DNA of 64,000 bases from Escherichia phage ECML-134. This document shows positions 18,151 through 23,676 of this stretch, piece after piece (the stretch's first letter is position 1; every line of letters begins with the position of its first letter). The position numbers and the translations under genes were made by a program. The DNA is taken from sequence record JX128259. One strand, given 5' to 3'. A model generated the notes under the pieces. That model saw nothing but the letters and a program-made list of their open reading frames with translations, had not been told where the DNA came from and did no database searches.

Positions 18151-19119
18151 TTATTTCAGAAGAGTAACCGTAGCAATTTCTTCCCAATGATTTTTGTCGG
18201 TCATAATAAAGTCAGCAAGATAAAGAGCAGTACGCAGTGAAACATTGCGTAAACGGTTAACATTGACTTTCATCCATGATAATGCTTTATAAGTTTCTTC
18301 ATCAGAAAGACCGCGCTTTTGCATCATGTCGGTTGAAAGAATAACATCTTCAACCCTGACCATAATTTCTTCATTAGTGTGAACACCCAAATCCAAATAA
18401 ACTGAGCGGGACACTAATGCTTGTAAATGTGGAGCAAGTTTAGTACCACGGTCTAATTCGCGGTCAATATCAACGTTTGTGATAAAAACAATCGTTCCTT
18501 TAAATTCAAACTCACGCTCAATGCCTTTTTCTTCTAAGTAAGAAGATGCGGTGCTCCAGCAGACTTTACGGGTCTCTCCAGTGTCCAGAGCAGCTTTCAG
18601 AAGATTAAGAATGTCCATATCAGAGAAAACATCCACATCATCAATCAAAAGGACAGAATTCTCTTCACGATTATTCCAAAGCTGTTCATAAAGACCGATA
18701 CCAGAGATTTTACCATTAATGCTTTTATACTCAATGTATCCAATATCATTTGCTTTATTTAAAGCTTTATCTAAAGAATACGTTTTACCAATACCCGCCG
18801 CACCAGAGATAATTAATGAACGAATGTTTCCGTTAATAATACCATTCGTCATCATTCCCATAACATTAAATCTTTTATTAATGCGGGTTTTCATATCTTC
18901 ATATGATTCTTTAACTTCTTCAACTTTTACACCATCATATGAAATGTCTGATTTGTAAACCCAAACACCGCGACGCTTACCGTCAATTTCAACAAAAACT
19001 TTACCATCTCCTTGTGCATCTACCGGAGCATTATCTGGGAACCATTCACCTAAGAGCTCAAAAGTTCCAGAGATTTCTTTACCGAAGTAGATACCCTTAT
19101 TGATAGTTACAGTTTTCAT
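18151..19119 (-). CDS. P-loop NTPase (AAA-like ATPase)
   Basis: Walker A SGAAGIGKTYS and Walker B VLLIDDVD; start at MKTVTIN after ggagaataaa RBS. Confidence 0.65.
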   Translation of the reverse strand: MKTVTINKGIYFGKEISGTFELLGEWFPDNAPVDAQGDGKVFVEIDGKRRGVWVYKSDISYDGVKVEEVKESYEDMKTRINKRFNVMGMMTNGIINGNIRSLIISGAAGIGKTYSLDKALNKANDIGYIEYKSINGKISGIGLYEQLWNNREENSVLLIDDVDVFSDMDILNLLKAALDTGETRKVCWSTASSYLEEKGIEREFEFKGTIVFITNVDIDRELDRGTKLAPHLQALVSRSVYLDLGVHTNEEIMVRVEDVILSTDMMQKRGLSDEETYKALSWMKVNVNRLRNVSLRTALYLADFIMTDKNHWEEIATVTLLK

Positions 19120-19166
19120 TTTATTCTCCAATCTCACATTTGTTTTGATAGGGTAATAGTATCACA
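19111..19166 (-). repeat. Promoter-leader cassette, copy A (about 55 nt, near-identical to 39065-39119)
   Basis: ttttcattttattctccaatctcacatttgttttgatagggtaatagtatcac versus the same string with one mismatch at 39065-39119. Confidence 0.7.
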
Positions 19167-19195
19167 CTACTACCCTTCTGTAAACAATTTATTTT
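19145..19195 (-). promoter_or_regulatory. Early promoter with stem-loop, upstream of the ATPase gene
   Basis: tgtaaaca at 19179-19186; -10 region inside hairpin gggtaatagt...actactaccc. Confidence 0.5.
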
Positions 19196-19452
19196 AACGT
19201 TCGCCAAATTTTTACTGCTTCACGGCGAGATACTTCTACAGCTCCAAGTTCTACAGCTTTTTGGCGTCGGCGAGCGTGTAAGTCATAATGTTTAATGCGT
19301 TTATCTTGAAACCAAGAACGTTTCATTCCTATTGCTTCTGCCATTTCATGAAGCTCTTCAATATCTCCATCAGTGAACATATGACAATTTTTAGTTGGAT
19401 GACCGCGAAGTTTCCATCCATGATTCATTAAAACATCTACGTAAACTGTCAT
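19189..19452 (-). CDS. Hypothetical conserved small protein
   Basis: 87 aa ORF with His/Cys residues (HGW...CHMF); 4-nt overlap with upstream ORF. Confidence 0.45.
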   Translation of the reverse strand: MTVYVDVLMNHGWKLRGHPTKNCHMFTDGDIEELHEMAEAIGMKRSWFQDKRIKHYDLHARRRQKAVELGAVEVSRREAVKIWRTLK

Positions 19453-19598
19453 TGATTCTTCTCCAAATAAGTTTCGATAATTTTCTGAGCGAGATAAACT
19501 GCATTATCTTCAGTTGCATCTTCTAAGAAACTTTCAAAACACTCTGAAATTTCTTCTGTGTCAATCAACTTTTTTACTTCAATTGGTGTAATTTTCAT
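19449..19598 (-). CDS. Hypothetical small acidic protein
   Basis: Start at MKITPIEVKK after an early promoter at 19625-19672. Confidence 0.35.
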   Translation of the reverse strand: MKITPIEVKKLIDTEEISECFESFLEDATEDNAVYLAQKIIETYLEKNQ

Positions 19599-19624
19599 TT
19601 TGTTTTTCCGTTTAAGTGTTTGTT

Positions 19625-19672
19625 TTGATAGTTGTATAGTACCATAAAGCTTTATGCTTGTAAACAATTTTG
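19625..19672 (-). promoter_or_regulatory. Early promoter
   Basis: tgtaaaca at 19659-19666 plus gatagttgtatagtacca. Confidence 0.5.
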
Positions 19673-19689
19673 TGAAAAATTTTTGAAAT

Positions 19690-19713
19690 AAAAAAGGGAG
19701 CCCGAAGGCTCCC
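19690..19713 (-). terminator. Intrinsic terminator after the nucleotidyltransferase gene
   Basis: Reverse strand GGGAGCC-ttcg-GGCTCCC followed by TTTTTT. Confidence 0.6.
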
Positions 19714-19715
19714 TA

Positions 19716-20729
19716 TCATTTATAATAACTTCGGTGGTTTTCAAGATAAACCCTCTCAAGGAAGTCATCCCAGAAACCCATGTCTACTTTTTGCTGCATA
19801 CCGTTCTTAGAAGCTTCAGTAGATGCTGCTTCTACTTGATCGACCACATCTTCCAAAAACTCTTGAACTGTTTTAAATGGATGTTTACCCAACTTCACGT
19901 CGAGAATAAATGGAGCATCTTGAAGTGGATAAACCAAGTCACCAGTTTTGTAAATTTCCAATAGTTGGAGTCCACCACGGCAAGCATGACTCAAAGCTTT
20001 CCAGTCAATACCTTCATTGGCTTCGGCCTTACGAGCGCGTTCACCATATTCAGCATCTAATTTGTTCAGTGACTGCTTAAGCTCAATAAGAGAAAGAGTT
20101 GTCTGATATTTACGACCCAACACAGTGTAGAACGTTTGTGGGCCTGTTTTCTCATGATTATGGAACACCCATTCACAGAATTCGTTTTCTGGAAGACGAT
20201 GCTTAATATCTTCAACTTTAGTACGACGCTGCTTAATGGAACCGTCTTCTTGGTAATCAACCCATTGCTCAGGGATTTGATTAACTACTTTCAATACATC
20301 ACGTAATGCAGCCAAACGAGAACCCTTGACGCCGTATTTAGAAGCTTGCTTGCGGACATATCCTAAATATGATTTCATGTTAGTCGTATAAAAACGAGAA
20401 CGGTTGTCTTGAATAAACTTCCACACATCAGGCAAATCAGATTTAACCACCAGTTCAGGTGGAGTGTGAAGCATATCCAATGCTACAGTTTCACCATCTG
20501 CTGCTAATTTAAAGAAATACTTAAGACTATACAATTCGTGGTCAATATCATCTTTAGTGTTTTTAGATGATGTGTTGTTGGTGTTTTTACTCATGTGCTC
20601 TTTGACATTTCCGATAAGAATATCGCGAGCAGGAGGAACAAAAATTTCTTTAAAATCTACATCAGATTCTGGAGTAGAAGTTCCATAAAGATGACTACCA
20701 AAATAGCTTTTCATTACTGTTTTCATCAT
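19716..20729 (-). CDS. Pol-beta superfamily nucleotidyltransferase, function unknown
   Basis: 337 aa; N-terminal GS-x11-DVD motif (YFGSHLYGTSTPESDVDF) and downstream acidic strand (VALDMLH); helical C-terminal region; ATGA overlap with upstream gene. Confidence 0.6.
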   Translation of the reverse strand: MMKTVMKSYFGSHLYGTSTPESDVDFKEIFVPPARDILIGNVKEHMSKNTNNTSSKNTKDDIDHELYSLKYFFKLAADGETVALDMLHTPPELVVKSDLPDVWKFIQDNRSRFYTTNMKSYLGYVRKQASKYGVKGSRLAALRDVLKVVNQIPEQWVDYQEDGSIKQRRTKVEDIKHRLPENEFCEWVFHNHEKTGPQTFYTVLGRKYQTTLSLIELKQSLNKLDAEYGERARKAEANEGIDWKALSHACRGGLQLLEIYKTGDLVYPLQDAPFILDVKLGKHPFKTVQEFLEDVVDQVEAASTEASKNGMQQKVDMGFWDDFLERVYLENHRSYYK

Positions 20730-21187
20730 TCAGCCTTATATTCAATAACAGGACATACTTTAGCTTTACGGGCTTTTAAAAATTCGACGATAATAGATTT
20801 CTTGGGTTGAATAGGAGGTAAACCTTTATACGCCCTATCAATATTTTCTACATGTAAAGCATAATCCTTTTTCCATTTATAATCTTTATATTTTTCATGC
20901 AGTTGTGCAGGAATAACAAATGAACCAATAATAAGTAAAACAAGCAAAATGGCAAATATAAATGCTGATGGAATAAGAGTCCATAAACTACCAAAAATAA
21001 TCCATTTCTGTATGATTTCTGCGCAGATGATAGTTAGACCTGTGAGTATAGTACATCCGAAAAAAGAAACGAAAAATGTAGGGATAACAATAGACCAAAA
21101 GTATGCACACAGTGTCTTAGGTCGTTTCCATTCATCATTAAACAGTTTGAATAATTTATAGTGCCAAGAGTTTTCATTAATAATCAT
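20726..21187 (-). CDS. Hypothetical integral membrane protein
   Basis: 153 aa; about three hydrophobic helices; coupled to the nucleotidyltransferase gene. Confidence 0.55.
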   Translation of the reverse strand: MIINENSWHYKLFKLFNDEWKRPKTLCAYFWSIVIPTFFVSFFGCTILTGLTIICAEIIQKWIIFGSLWTLIPSAFIFAILLVLLIIGSFVIPAQLHEKYKDYKWKKDYALHVENIDRAYKGLPPIQPKKSIIVEFLKARKAKVCPVIEYKAE

Positions 21188-21189
21188 AA

Positions 21190-21711
21190 TTATCCTTTCA
21201 TTGAAGGTGTAACAGTTGTTAAATACTTAATCATAGCTTCAGCTTCTGATTTTGATAATGAAATTTCTCCATTGTTTTGACGAATAGAAATAAAATCCGG
21301 ATGACGGTCACCACCAGCTTTTAAAACACACATATAAGTATCAGTTTCATCTTCAATATCTGAAATGATTGAAGCAGTTCCACATGAATGTGGTTTTTGA
21401 TAAATCAATACAGCTTTTCTTCCACCGTTTGACTGTTCATAAACTTTTAACACATCAAACAAATCGCTTCTTTTATCAATAGCTAAGATGTTGTTTTCAT
21501 CTTCAATATTAAATCCTTCGGATACTTCATAAAGTGTCACCCATAAATCACCTATATCGATAGTAGCATTTCCTTTTCCACGACTTTCAAGAATATGACA
21601 AATTTTCTTGATTTCGTCATAACTCATTTTAATAATATCATCTCCTTGAATAAGGAAGATGTCATTTTTAAATTCAACATGAATTAAACCACTTCCACTT
21701 GAAATAAACAT
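21190..21711 (-). CDS. Hypothetical protein, paralog of 21718..22275
   Basis: 173 aa; C-terminal ISIRQNNGEISLSKSEAEAMIKYLTTVTPSM resembles the neighbour's C-terminus. Confidence 0.55.
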   Translation of the reverse strand: MFISSGSGLIHVEFKNDIFLIQGDDIIKMSYDEIKKICHILESRGKGNATIDIGDLWVTLYEVSEGFNIEDENNILAIDKRSDLFDVLKVYEQSNGGRKAVLIYQKPHSCGTASIISDIEDETDTYMCVLKAGGDRHPDFISIRQNNGEISLSKSEAEAMIKYLTTVTPSMKG

Positions 21712-21717
21712 ATTTCC

Positions 21718-22275
21718 TCACTTTGAAATCATAGTTGGAATGACAGAATCAAGATAAGTCTTTAGCGCAATAGCTTCGTCTTTGGTAAATGTGACAATAT
21801 GCGATCGAAAATCATCAATTTGACGAATAGTTAAGACATCACCATCTTCATAGCATTTTGATACGTTTAAAACAGTTTCATCATTTTGATTGCAAGCGTT
21901 AGTAATAATAGCATTGCAATTTTTGAGCCATTTTAAACTATGTTTTCTTTCATTAGAATAATAAAAATATTTAATCTTATCTATAAAACTATCCCAATGG
22001 ATAACTGATAAACACATTGACTCACTTTTAATATTAAATCCTGGGCATGAAGAATAAAAATGAATTTTGTGCTCATCATTGATGCTTACTATTTTATCAG
22101 TATAAGGATATTCAATTTGGGTTAAATGAATGATTTCGCTAGGAGTAAAATATAGCATATCGTCTTCTTGTGTCAAACGATACATATTATTTACTTTTTC
22201 TATAGCTAATTCACCAAAAAGCGGACTAACTTCTAATACTAATCGTTTCATATTGATTCTCTTCGACTCACTCAC
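21718..22275 (-). CDS. Hypothetical protein, paralog of 21190..21711
   Basis: 185 aa; C-terminal LTIRQIDDFRSHIVTFTKDEAIALKTYLDSVIPTM; first gene after promoter region 22276-22440; track start codon may be GTG. Confidence 0.5.
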   Translation of the reverse strand: MSESKRINMKRLVLEVSPLFGELAIEKVNNMYRLTQEDDMLYFTPSEIIHLTQIEYPYTDKIVSINDEHKIHFYSSCPGFNIKSESMCLSVIHWDSFIDKIKYFYYSNERKHSLKWLKNCNAIITNACNQNDETVLNVSKCYEDGDVLTIRQIDDFRSHIVTFTKDEAIALKTYLDSVIPTMISK

Positions 22276-22404
22276 AATTACATACTCCTTTGAATAATAT
22301 CAATAATGTTGTTCACCAGATTATAAGTAAACATTGGATAATTATATTGAATCATCACATACACAACAAACAAAACTTTCATTCTCTTCTCCTTGGCAGT
22401 TGAC

Positions 22405-22445
22405 AAGATTACTATATCATAACCTTGCCAACTTGTAAACCATTA
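22405..22445 (-). promoter_or_regulatory. Early promoter upstream of the four-gene operon
   Basis: Reverse strand GTTTACA -17 nt- TATAGT (plus coordinates 22434-22440 and 22411-22416). Confidence 0.5.
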
Positions 22446-22616
22446 AATGACGTTTTCAATAAAATTCTGAAGCTTTGGGTGAGCATCAACCATGATTTTC
22501 ATTTCTTCCTTTGCGAAAGCTGTACCTCTTTCCCTAGCAGAATACTCATAGTCAGAAACTGCATTAGCATATTCTTCAATTAGCTTCATTAAAAACATCT
22601 GCTTTTCAGTTTTCAT
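22443..22616 (-). CDS. Small hypothetical protein (57 aa)
   Basis: Own reading: MKTEKQMFLMKLIEEYANAVSDYEYSARERGTAFAKEEMKIMVDAHPKLQNFIENVI; below ORF-track cutoff. Confidence 0.3.
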   Translation of the reverse strand: MKTEKQMFLMKLIEEYANAVSDYEYSARERGTAFAKEEMKIMVDAHPKLQNFIENVI

Positions 22617-22800
22617 TATTCCACCTAATCATTTCAAGATATTGAACTAACTTAGCTTTGGATTTATCCAAATCCTTTTTAGCTGCTTCTATACCATCGT
22701 ATGAGTATCCTTCACAATGCTCAACTGCTAATTGGTATGAATCTATTTCAATATCACGTGCTAATTTAATGATTTTTTCAAACTGTTCACTTGTCAGCAT
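22606..22800 (-). CDS. Hypothetical small protein
   Basis: 64 aa acidic ORF. Confidence 0.4.
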   Translation of the reverse strand: MLTSEQFEKIIKLARDIEIDSYQLAVEHCEGYSYDGIEAAKKDLDKSKAKLVQYLEMIRWNNEN

Positions 22801-22802
22801 AC

Positions 22803-23006
22803 TTAAACTCTCGTATTATGATCGATAATTTCATCAAGAAACATATCTAAAGCTTCTACAGCATTATCAACTTTAGCTTCAAGTTCTTCAGCGCCTTTAT
22901 TTGCAATGCCTGCCGAAAACCAAGCAAAGTCACTAAGTTCCTCATCTGCTTTGCGAATTAAAGCTACCAATTCTTTAATTTTATCTGCTTGTTCAATGCT
23001 AGTCAT
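22803..23006 (-). CDS. Hypothetical small acidic protein
   Basis: Internal start MTSIEQ gives a TAATG junction with the upstream ORF. Confidence 0.4.
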   Translation of the reverse strand: MTSIEQADKIKELVALIRKADEELSDFAWFSAGIANKGAEELEAKVDNAVEALDMFLDEIIDHNTRV

Positions 23007-23194
23007 TATTCCACCACATATGAAAGAGAGAATATTGCACACGCCATATGAGTTGCAGCTTCATCACACATATCATAACTTTCCTTAAGAAGTTCTACAA
23101 GTTCTTCACTAGTAACTTCATCCATGTCGACGAAAAAATCACCATTAATGATGACGTAGATATTTCCTTCTTGATTAAGTGCTTCAATTTTCAT
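23006..23194 (-). CDS. Hypothetical small acidic protein
   Basis: Start MKIEALNQ after aagaggag RBS; early promoter at 23215-23255. Confidence 0.4.
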
Positions 23195-23214
23195 GATGTT
23201 CTCCTCTTTATCCG

Positions 23215-23255
23215 ATAGTTGTATAGTATCACAGCTCAAATGGAAAGTAAACCGG
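23215..23255 (-). promoter_or_regulatory. Early promoter
   Basis: gtaaac at 23247-23252 and atagtatcac -10 region. Confidence 0.5.
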
Positions 23256-23261
23256 TAAAAT

Positions 23262-23284
23262 GAAAAAAGTCTCCCGAAGGAGAC
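23262..23284 (-). terminator. Intrinsic terminator
   Basis: Reverse strand hairpin GTCTCC-ttcg-GGAGAC followed by TTTTTT. Confidence 0.55.
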
Positions 23285-23289
23285 TAATG

Positions 23290-23676
23290 TTATTCGAGGG
23301 AAAGAAGATATTTACTCTGGTAAAACATCCCAGTAATATCATCTATCGTGCTTTGAATGGCTGGAGGCATTTCTTTATAAATGCTGTTAGATTGGTCTAG
23401 TATGCGATCAATCATTTTAATTGTGTCGGTAGGAAGTTTACTGGCATCTGGAATAGAAGGCGTGTATTTTCTACCAGAATACCCCAAATATTGCTCACCA
23501 AATTTATCAATCAAATCTGGCAACTCAGAGAAAATAAAATCGTATGCTTTGTGTCTAGCATAACTTTTAGTTTCAAAATGCGCAGAATGAAAATAAGCTT
23601 GTGCAGCCATTAATAAACCTAAGTATTCATCTGCCTTTGAAGGTTTTCCACTTTGTGAAAAGTCGCTGAATTTCAT
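23290..23676 (-). CDS. Hypothetical protein (rI.-1-like position)
   Basis: 128 aa; 4-nt overlap with rI; terminator hairpin downstream. Confidence 0.5.

Follow-up and report, generated by a model that had tools for sequence, protein, structure and literature searches.

Five genes lie on the minus strand between an early promoter and an intrinsic terminator in the window, as we call the whole 64,000-nucleotide stretch of Escherichia phage ECML-134 DNA (JX128259) that was analyzed (Table 1). An earlier reading made from the letters alone (the sequence-only reading) had described four of them, and these minus-strand ORFs of 185, 173, 153 and 337 aa were confirmed. The four-gene count itself was too low: the supposed promoter region (22276-22440) also holds the conserved 34-aa mobD.2 ORF, found in Mosigvirus FL18 as well, and the unit therefore has five genes. 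The tight coupling that had been claimed was also observed: successive genes are 6 nt or 2 nt apart, and the stop of the membrane protein gene overlaps the start of the nucleotidyltransferase gene in an ATGA (20726-20729). All ORFs of the unit matched phage protein families (E 1e-22 to 1e-137) and showed dN/dS values of 0.01-0.37 against a close relative, indicating that they are real genes and not chance ORFs. Plus-strand ORFs of the region were all of 76 aa or less.

Table 1. Features of the early transcription unit (positions in the window)
Feature	Position	Strand	Description
Early promoter, T4-type	22411..22440	(-)	GTTTACA, 17-nt spacer with TGA before -10, TATAGT
mobD.2 orthologue, 34 aa	22278..22382	(-)	phrog_3515, E 6.5e-22; 91% identical to T4 mobD.2
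MobD.1 orthologue, y05I-family, 185 aa	21718..22275	(-)	Predicted fold Pur-alpha/Whirly (PC4-like)
Second y05I paralog, 173 aa	21190..21711	(-)	RB32ORF097c; Pfam T4_y05I_N and T4_y05I_C
Small membrane protein, 153 aa	20726..21187	(-)	RB32ORF096c; phrog_944, 1.5e-49
NrdC.11, 337 aa, RlaP-family Pol-beta-type nucleotidyltransferase	19716..20729	(-)	PF10127; 99.1% identical to T4 NrdC.11
Intrinsic terminator	19685..19714	(-)	Stem AGGGAGCC, loop TTCG, stem GGCTCCCT, then TTTTTATTTC

The promoter was found as previously proposed. It agrees with the early-promoter pattern of T4, GTTTAC-N16-18-TANNNT, for which the window has 18 matches, nearly all of them on the minus strand, against an expectation of 2.7. 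Neither the late (TATAAATA) nor the middle (MotA-box) promoter pattern was present within 19600-22500, and an Rfam search over 19000-23400 gave nothing above gathering scores. The unit had been described as bounded by terminators, which is correct for the 3' end, where an 8-bp GC-rich hairpin is followed by a T-run, but not for the 5' side. The next early promoter upstream lies at 23223-23252, and the interval from there to 22440 has no minus-strand terminator, so that read-through into the unit is likely. The locus is a T4 early transcription unit with an early promoter upstream and an intrinsic terminator downstream.

The window belongs to a Tequatrovirus, and phage SCS4 is 99.4% identical to it over the region. 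Counted as records with coverage of at least 80% of 2.9 kb, 427 or more deposited phage genomes have the same arrangement. The T4 map gives the same order, with mobD.2, mobD.1, mobD and nrdC.11. There the mobD cassette exactly takes the place of positions 20731-21692: where the window has the 173-aa and 153-aa genes, T4 has the homing endonuclease gene mobD, and it retains NrdC.11. The region represents the T4 mobD.2-mobD.1-[mobD]-nrdC.11 segment in an allele that lacks mobD. The sequence-only reading had matched none of its proteins to a characterised T4 protein and had proposed an undescribed module. Neither view survived the comparison: mobD.1 (86-87% identical) and nrdC.11 (99%) are T4 genes, and the remaining two were already catalogued as RB32ORF097c (so named in RB14, RB51 and T2) and RB32ORF096c, in the arrangement shared by these many genomes. 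That reading had set its proposal against ordinary T4 orthology combined with the absence of a nucleotidyltransferase fold; the orthology proved clear and the nucleotidyltransferase assignment stands. The locus is a common, catalogued T-even early gene cluster of putative function and not a new module.

The components of the cluster are lost independently. In T2 both y05I genes are fragmented, with the membrane gene and nrdC.11 intact, and the families differ in the number of phage records that contain them (1516 for NrdC.11, 909 for the membrane protein, and 727 and 468 for the y05I family, the last figure being that of the 173-aa paralog). The nrdC.11-mobD.3 segment of T4 can be deleted under laboratory conditions.

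The 337-aa protein is a nucleotidyltransferase of the Pol-beta superfamily, as had been suggested: it scores 44.3 bits (E 2.4e-11) with PF10127 (RlaP), whose gathering cutoff is 23, and its catalytic residues are conserved. The reported GS...DVD motif was present and conserved, although its spacing is GS-x10-DVD and not x11, and the downstream acidic strand VALDMLH was likewise present and conserved. Among 11 homologues with identities as low as 29%, G11, S12, D23 and D25 did not vary and D85 was nearly invariant, being replaced by Glu in one Vibrio phage; all 11 of these diverse phage homologues matched PF10127 (best E 7.6e-15). Judged by a dN/dS of 0.01 against a close relative, NrdC.11 is under very strong purifying selection. 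The AF2 model, built on an alignment of 22 sequences that are all at least 78% identical, was poor, with a mean pLDDT of 55 and the N-terminal 120 residues unmodelled; the C-terminal half is predicted to be helical. Sequence and profile searches of the PDB returned no relative of NrdC.11. Nor was there a match to the models of AbiE/MenT/MNT-type defence or toxin nucleotidyltransferases, the NCBIfam MntA score of 13.2 bits falling short of its cutoff of 60.

The 185-aa and 173-aa proteins are true paralogs, as the sequence-only reading had proposed; they are 28% identical along their entire length (E 3e-9) and have two Pfam domains in common. The T4_y05I models (PF24449 and PF24448) scored 134 and 77 bits with the 185-aa protein and 111 and 83 bits with the 173-aa protein, both above the gathering cutoffs of 24.9 and 27. 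The family comprises 57 clusters and is confined to T-even relatives. From the predicted fold, these proteins are probably Pur-alpha/Whirly-like and would bind single-stranded nucleic acid. At 5-10% identity they show no sequence similarity to Pur-alpha, Whirly or other PC4-like proteins, including Borrelia Bpur and the PC4-like protein of phage T5, and the PurA and Whirly models of Pfam gave no match even at E up to 10. Searched with Foldseek, the y05I model, whose C-domain is of low confidence, gave nothing significant in the PDB, where the Pur-alpha/Whirly match was not reproduced, and found only the y05I family itself in BFVD. Alignment of the three putative y05I repeats with hhalign revealed no sequence-level repeat, and PDB sequence and profile searches found no relative of MobD.1.

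The 153-aa protein belongs to a family of small inner-membrane proteins that is widespread in phages; this family forms 414 clusters at 50% identity, and Pfam has no entry for it. The sequence-only reading was right that it is a membrane protein, but the three helices it counted are doubtful. Crude hydropathy shows two long hydrophobic stretches, at 26-59 and 63-97, with basic tails at either end, suggesting that an even number of spans, two or four, is likelier than three. Conserved motifs lie in the N-terminal (SWHY...LCxYFW) and C-terminal (KAxKxKVCPxIEF) parts, which the predicted topology would place in the cytoplasm; W8, H9, C27, Y29, C145 and P146 are invariant.

Published work on the RlaP family bears directly on NrdC.11. 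According to a preprint, the Pseudomonas enzymes PfRlaP and PaRlaP add one or two NMPs to RNA 3'-OH ends, an activity shown for these enzymes only, and in vitro addition occurs at many such ends with limited specificity; the phage enzyme is labelled there as an 'RlaP of unknown function'. RlaPs have been proposed as an antidote to RloC-type toxins, with T4 NrdC.11 named as a member. In published predictions, phage RlaPs put back, ahead of ligation, what RloC-type anticodon nucleases have removed; Iyer et al. (2021) predicted such a restoration of lost nucleotides for the phage enzymes. RNA end modification, one of the options listed in the sequence-only reading, agrees with this family assignment, by which NrdC.11 is predicted to add NMPs to RNA 3' ends.

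The genomic neighbours of NrdC.11-like genes were also analyzed. In this window no ligase, kinase or phosphoesterase was found in or adjoining the unit. T-even genomes do not have nrdC.11 beside pseT or rnlA, and in T4 these two lie at 134-137 kb, about 80 kb from nrdC.11 at 55 kb. In 51 viral loci that are not T4-like, on the other hand, the immediate neighbours were enriched for RNA-repair genes: HD proteins (9 plus 3), ATP-dependent ligase (4), Rnl1-type RNA ligase (2) and PF09414 RNA ligase (2), together with Ro60, PNKP and RtcB. At six loci RtcB was on the same strand within about 3 kb of the NrdC.11-like gene. CCA-adding enzymes adjoin the NrdC.11-like gene in Barbavirus-like contigs, the only ones with full CCA enzymes; a stand-alone neighbour cluster called 'CCA-adding enzyme' was discarded, being mostly HD-domain-only proteins. 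Genus-level counts showed that NrdC.11 tracks Pnk and Rnl1, a comparison that is confounded by shared ancestry.

We consider that the locus is a standard T-even early unit of independent accessory genes, anchored by an RlaP-family NrdC.11 that acts in RNA repair, and put the probability of this reading at roughly 65%. A sigma-70/T4 early promoter would drive five translationally coupled ORFs up to the intrinsic terminator, and the genes would be co-transcribed accessories, each with its own evolutionary distribution, and not parts of an obligate multi-protein system. By analogy with its family, NrdC.11 would hold two Mg2+ ions with D23, D25 and D85 and move one or two NMPs from NTPs to a broken RNA 3'-OH. 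It may in this way make good what host ribotoxins remove, for instance anticodon nucleases of the RloC type that excise the wobble nucleotide, after which Pnk and the RNA ligase, whose genes lie elsewhere in the phage genome, would reseal a functional tRNA.

The nucleotidyltransferase might instead work on RNA 3' ends in a process other than anticodon-loop repair, for example in the repair of tRNA 3'-CCA ends hit by MenT-, colicin- or exonuclease-type toxins, or in the tailing of host or phage RNA to alter its stability. The limited in vitro specificity of RlaP described in the preprint is consistent with this, and so is the finding that the commonest neighbours on non-T4 contigs are CCA-adding enzymes and stand-alone HD phosphohydrolases. 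Since ligases (RtcB, Rnl1, Rnl2-like and ATP-dependent) are frequent neighbours too, break repair is favoured over simple tailing, and we regard such another process as unlikely. It is distinctly improbable that the y05I paralogs are RNA-handling partners that present broken RNA ends to NrdC.11 in a self-contained end-repair cassette. Their co-transcription with nrdC.11 in this unit would agree with such a partnership, as would the Slopekvirus gene that overlaps the nrdC.11 start and encodes a phage ProQ-C-like protein (ProQ RNA-chaperone family). However, their nucleic-acid binding is a model-based prediction, the family is tiny and recorded in far fewer phages than NrdC.11, T2 keeps nrdC.11 intact with both y05I copies broken, and y05I is absent beside NrdC.11 in Aeromonas, Vibrio and Slopekvirus phages and in non-T4 contigs. 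Extending the cassette to the whole unit, so that y05I proteins capture the ends, NrdC.11 restores them, Pnk and Rnl1 reseal them and the membrane protein localises or regulates the process, is highly improbable. If it were true, T-even phages would possess a dedicated countermeasure against anticodon nucleases that excise nucleotides, RloC among them.

The coupling of a nucleotidyltransferase to a membrane protein had also been taken to resemble a signalling, abortive-infection or superinfection-exclusion module, in which the enzyme would either produce a nucleotide signal or modify some target, with the membrane protein as effector. The two genes share the ATGA overlap, and their order is kept in Tequatrovirus, Mosigvirus and Dhakavirus and, with one or two intervening genes, in Klebsiella and Acinetobacter T4-like phages. 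The conservation of this order (membrane gene, zero to two small genes, nrdC.11) within Tevenvirinae and the T4-like phages of Acinetobacter makes a functional link conceivable. Tight coupling is nevertheless usual throughout the neighbouring early genes of T4, and no protein of the unit matched a PADLOC model, CD-NTase included, at E up to 0.1. The enzyme is moreover an RlaP, a family whose characterised members work on RNA ends and not as cyclases, and T4 holds a 99%-identical NrdC.11 with no membrane gene. Co-occurrence and joint loss were not observed, since most viral loci have one gene and not the other: in viral contigs scanned with a narrow alignment of the membrane family, 61 of 80 loci had no RlaP within 5 kb; of 80 NrdC.11-like loci, 51 lay outside a T4-like context with no membrane gene nearby. 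We give the module reading hardly any credence.

With its predicted role in RNA repair, NrdC.11 is an obvious candidate for a phage counter-move, and among T4-like phages its occurrence is almost as general as that of Pnk and Rnl1. As the idea of RlaP-family repair is already in print (Burroughs and Aravind 2016, as cited in a later paper; Iyer et al. 2021; Carruthers et al. 2025), the locus offers a convenient test case and not a new concept. A smaller useful point is that the RB32ORF096c family, outside Pfam, is large and has invariant Cys/His positions. The y05I/MobD.1 family, if its predicted fold is right, may be a phage version of the Pur-alpha/Whirly-like nucleic-acid binders.

NrdC.11 shares with the RlaP family the catalytic set of G-S, DxD and third Asp, and its clade in other viruses adjoins RNA ligases, RtcB and HD enzymes, as described for RlaP. 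The crystal structure of PfRlaP has an N-terminal alpha/beta nucleotidyltransferase domain and a C-terminal helical domain with a cleft between them. NrdC.11 differs in having 337 aa, of which only residues 7-135 align with the 249-position Pfam model, a low-complexity insert at residues 36-65, and 200 clade-specific C-terminal residues with a conserved YGERARKAEANEGIDWKALSHAxRGG block. The unit resembles CBASS operons of CD-NTase and transmembrane effector in that the gene of a Pol-beta-superfamily nucleotidyltransferase adjoins that of a small membrane protein. However, the enzyme is not a CD-NTase, the pair is phage-encoded, the two genes are independent in most genomes, and the membrane family has its own predicted cytoplasmic Cys/His motifs and showed no resemblance to CBASS effectors in the searches made. 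A further comparison is with T4 Pnk (PseT) and Rnl1, which counter the PrrC anticodon nuclease: the presumed logic, repair of host-inflicted tRNA damage, is the same, and the genus-level distribution in the phage database is nearly identical. Pnk and Rnl1 mend a simple nick by healing and sealing it; the part of NrdC.11 would be to supply nucleotides that are missing.

The minus-strand early gene set at 19685-22440 had been described from the sequence alone as a terminator-bounded operon of four genes. The four ORFs were confirmed, but a fifth, encoding 34 aa (the T4 mobD.2 orthologue), lies at their 5' end, and only the 3' boundary stood, the 5' boundary being open. Strong phage protein family matches were obtained for all five ORFs, which are genuine genes. 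The four larger ones, encoding MobD.1 (185 aa), RB32ORF097c (173 aa), RB32ORF096c (153 aa) and NrdC.11 (337 aa), are separated by 6 nt, 2 nt and then an ATGA overlap. Compared with a 97.5%-identical relative, the NrdC.11 gene showed 25 synonymous changes and one non-synonymous change (dN/dS 0.01), against 0.17, 0.37 and 0.12 for the remaining three.

Features of the unit, its surroundings and the compared viral loci
Feature	Position	Strand	Assignment
Upstream early promoter	23223-23252	-	
Early promoter GTTTACA-17 nt-TATAGT	22411-22440	-	T4 early-promoter pattern GTTTAC-N16-18-TANNNT
34-aa ORF	22278-22382	-	phage protein family match
185-aa ORF (MobD.1)	21718-22275	-	phage protein family match; Pfam T4_y05I_N + T4_y05I_C
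173-aa ORF (RB32ORF097c)	21190-21711	-	phage protein family match; Pfam T4_y05I_N + T4_y05I_C
153-aa ORF (RB32ORF096c)	20726-21187	-	PHROG 944
337-aa ORF (NrdC.11)	19716-20729	-	Pfam PF10127
Terminator, 8-bp GC-rich hairpin then T-run	19685-19714	-	directly after last stop codon
Early promoter of DUF4031 gene and 50-aa ORF	19636-19665		
50-aa ORF	19449-19601		phrog_6888
87-aa ORF	19189-19452		DUF4031
NrdC.10 (328 aa)	18151-19137		P-loop ATPase
Tandem y05I paralogs (recombination and decay)	21190-22275; protein P0131; locus L015 2440-3519		
NrdC.11-like cassette	L117 4950-10687		NTase, HD, nuclease-like, RtcB, RNA ligase
NrdC.11-like cassette	L105 4992-9276		NTase, ligase, RtcB
Further non-T4 cassettes	L099 4977-6396; L134 3051-6517		
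Slopekvirus gene overlapping nrdC.11 start (Klebsiella phage phiKp_15)	L007 3627-4004		PF24203, E 1.2e-13

The proposed early promoter was also confirmed. The window contains 18 matches to its pattern, compared with 2.7 expected from shuffling; almost all of them lie on the minus strand and have a -10 region resembling TG(G/A)TA(C/T)TAT. Neither late (TATAAATA) nor MotA-box middle-promoter motifs were found within the unit, and an Rfam search returned no match above threshold. Since no minus-strand terminator was found between the unit and the next upstream early promoter, the unit is probably served by read-through transcription from upstream in addition to its own promoter.

The assignment of the 337-aa protein as a Pol-beta-type nucleotidyltransferase (NTase) held. 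NrdC.11 scored 44.3 bits (cutoff 23) for Pfam PF10127 (RlaP, "RNA repair pathway DNA polymerase beta family"), and 11 of 11 diverse phage homologues matched the family too. The GS...DVD motif is present, although with a spacing of x10 rather than x11; G11-S12, D23 and D25 are invariant in homologues down to 29% identity, and D85 is nearly so, being Glu in one Vibrio phage. The homologues also share a C-terminal block, YGERARKAEANEGIDWKALSHAxRGG. An AF2 model from a shallow alignment reached only pLDDT 55 and did not confirm the fold, and no sequence relative of NrdC.11 was found in the PDB. No CD-NTase or other PADLOC defence model matched, and NCBIfam returned only a sub-threshold MntA match.

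The unit is not undescribed, as had been supposed: all four larger proteins are catalogued, the names RB32ORF097c and RB32ORF096c coming from T2, RB14 and RB51 records. About 500 records of Tequatrovirus, Shigella and Yersinia phages contain the 2.9-kb segment at 90% identity or more, and 427 records cover at least 80% of it; its identity to Escherichia phage vB_EcoM_SCS4 is 99.4%. The T4 reference order at this place is mobD.2, mobD.1, mobD, nrdC.11, nrdC.10, and MobD has been listed as a free-standing HNH endonuclease between nrdC.11 and mobD.1. In direct comparison, an 808-bp mobD HNH homing-endonuclease cassette replaces window 20731-21692 (the 153-aa gene plus the 173-aa gene minus its first 18 nt) between flanks aligning at 92-97%. 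The window carries the common mobD-free allele and T4 is the exception. Identity to T4 is 86-87% for MobD.1 and 99.1% for NrdC.11, and T4 can lose the nrdC.11-mobD.3 block under laboratory conditions.

Between nrdC.11 and nrdC.10, the DUF4031 gene and the 50-aa ORF (window 19132-19624) have their own early promoter and are replaced in T4 by 11 bp. NrdC.10, with weak AAA_14, AAA_22 and nSTAND-like matches, remains downstream of nrdC.11 from Escherichia phages through Acinetobacter T4-like phages. Annotation artefacts are widespread in the public records that match window 18151-22275. "Thioredoxin" is the label given there to nrdC.x genes, the NTase among them, and [quoted passage not shown] the one given to MobD.1 and MobD.4. 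These labels appear to have been propagated from gene symbols without homology.

MobD.1 and RB32ORF097c are paralogs, as proposed (28% identity over the full length, E 3e-9), and both carry the two y05I domains ("putative transcription factor"). The y05I family is small, comprising 57 clusters, many of them fragments and all from T-even relatives. Its fold may be PC4-like, a class of single-stranded DNA and RNA binders (review PMC7549692); Foldseek did not reproduce this match, and no sequence-level signal for it was found in the y05I proteins. The tandem copies also decay: T2 has only fragments of both y05I genes, next to an intact nrdC.11 and an intact membrane gene. One metagenomic protein joins the N-half of MobD.1 to the C-half of RB32ORF097c, a chimera that points to recombination between the copies.

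The 153-aa protein, which has no Pfam family, belongs to a set of 414 clusters at 50% identity (exhaustive HMMER search), each of about 120-170 aa, with conserved N-terminal (M-x-I-N-x-N-S-W-H-Y...L-C-x-Y-F-W) and C-terminal (E-Y-I-K-A-K-K-x-K-V-C-P-x-I-E-F) motifs. A membrane protein of about three helices had been proposed; hydrophobicity was confirmed, but the two long hydrophobic blocks and net basic tails of most members suggest cytoplasmic termini and two or four spans. The invariant W8, H9, C27, Y29, C145 and P146 lie on the two presumably cytoplasmic tails, where they may bind a metal. Jumbo phages and many non-T4 contigs also carry members of this family.

The ATGA overlap had been read as a sign of a signalling or abortive-infection module. 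The membrane gene and nrdC.11 do keep a conserved order from Escherichia to Acinetobacter phages (membrane gene, 0-2 genes, nrdC.11, nrdC.10). However, they also occur apart, and phage record counts differ widely (1516 for NrdC.11 and 909 for the membrane protein, with 727 for MobD.1 and 468 for RB32ORF097c). T4, whose NrdC.11 is 99% identical, has neither the membrane gene nor the second y05I paralog, T2 has lost both y05I genes, and only 19 of 80 membrane-family viral loci have an RlaP gene within 5 kb, all on contigs of T4-like size. Since unrelated small genes precede nrdC.11 in Aeromonas, Vibrio, Slopekvirus and other phages, often overlapping its start codon likewise, the overlap belongs to the locus and does not signify a partnership. 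On this evidence the unit is not a module; the gene order is lineage-specific synteny within T4-like phages, which leaves a small residual probability of a functional link.

RNA end modification, also among the earlier options, fits the RlaP family. When IMG/VR was scanned using aligned distant NrdC.11-like proteins, 80 loci emerged, 29 in T4-like context and 51 outside. Among the 126 immediate neighbours in the latter, the commonest Pfam families were HD phosphohydrolases (nine, plus three HD_4), ATP-dependent ligases (four), T4 Rnl1-type RNA ligases (two), PF09414 RNA ligases (two) and single cases of Ro60 (TROVE/vWA), PNKP phosphatase and RtcB; at six loci RtcB lay on the same strand within about 3 kb. 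Some non-T4 contigs have compact cassettes in which the NrdC.11-like NTase gene overlaps that of an HD phosphohydrolase and is joined by RtcB and by ATP-dependent or RNA ligases; these are apparent phage RNA-repair operons. In Barbavirus-like contigs a complete CCA-adding enzyme is encoded two genes upstream of the NrdC.11-like gene. In Slopekvirus, the gene overlapping the nrdC.11 start codes for a phage ProQ C-terminal-like domain, which comes from a family of RNA chaperones. NrdC.11 is a near-core gene in T4-like phages, and its per-genus counts in the phage database nearly equal those of T4 Pnk and Rnl1, a comparison confounded by common descent: 607, 634 and 635 for Escherichia, 286, 286 and 287 for Klebsiella, 83 each for Shigella, 75, 77 and 77 for Aeromonas, and 69, 70 and 69 for Acinetobacter.

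With the three corrections (fifth ORF, x10 spacing, open 5' boundary) the sequence-only reading was essentially right in observation and partly right in interpretation. From family biochemistry and gene neighbourhood, the best-supported role is that NrdC.11 would assist phage RNA repair by adding nucleotides where RNA 3' ends are damaged, a mechanism already proposed in the literature. Iyer et al. predict that, ahead of ligation, phage RlaPs replace the nucleotides that were lost. A 2025 preprint, which explicitly places "T4NrdC.11" in the RlaP similarity network as a member of unknown function, shows that RlaPs from Pseudomonas (two were studied) extend RNA 3'-OH ends by one or two NMPs, favouring damaged RNA, and reports a crystal structure with three catalytic Asp. 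The same account proposes RlaP as an antidote to "smart" ribotoxins that cut and then remove a nucleotide, such as RloC. Elsewhere, excision of the wobble nucleotide by RloC has been described as damage that should thwart the repair enzymes of T4.
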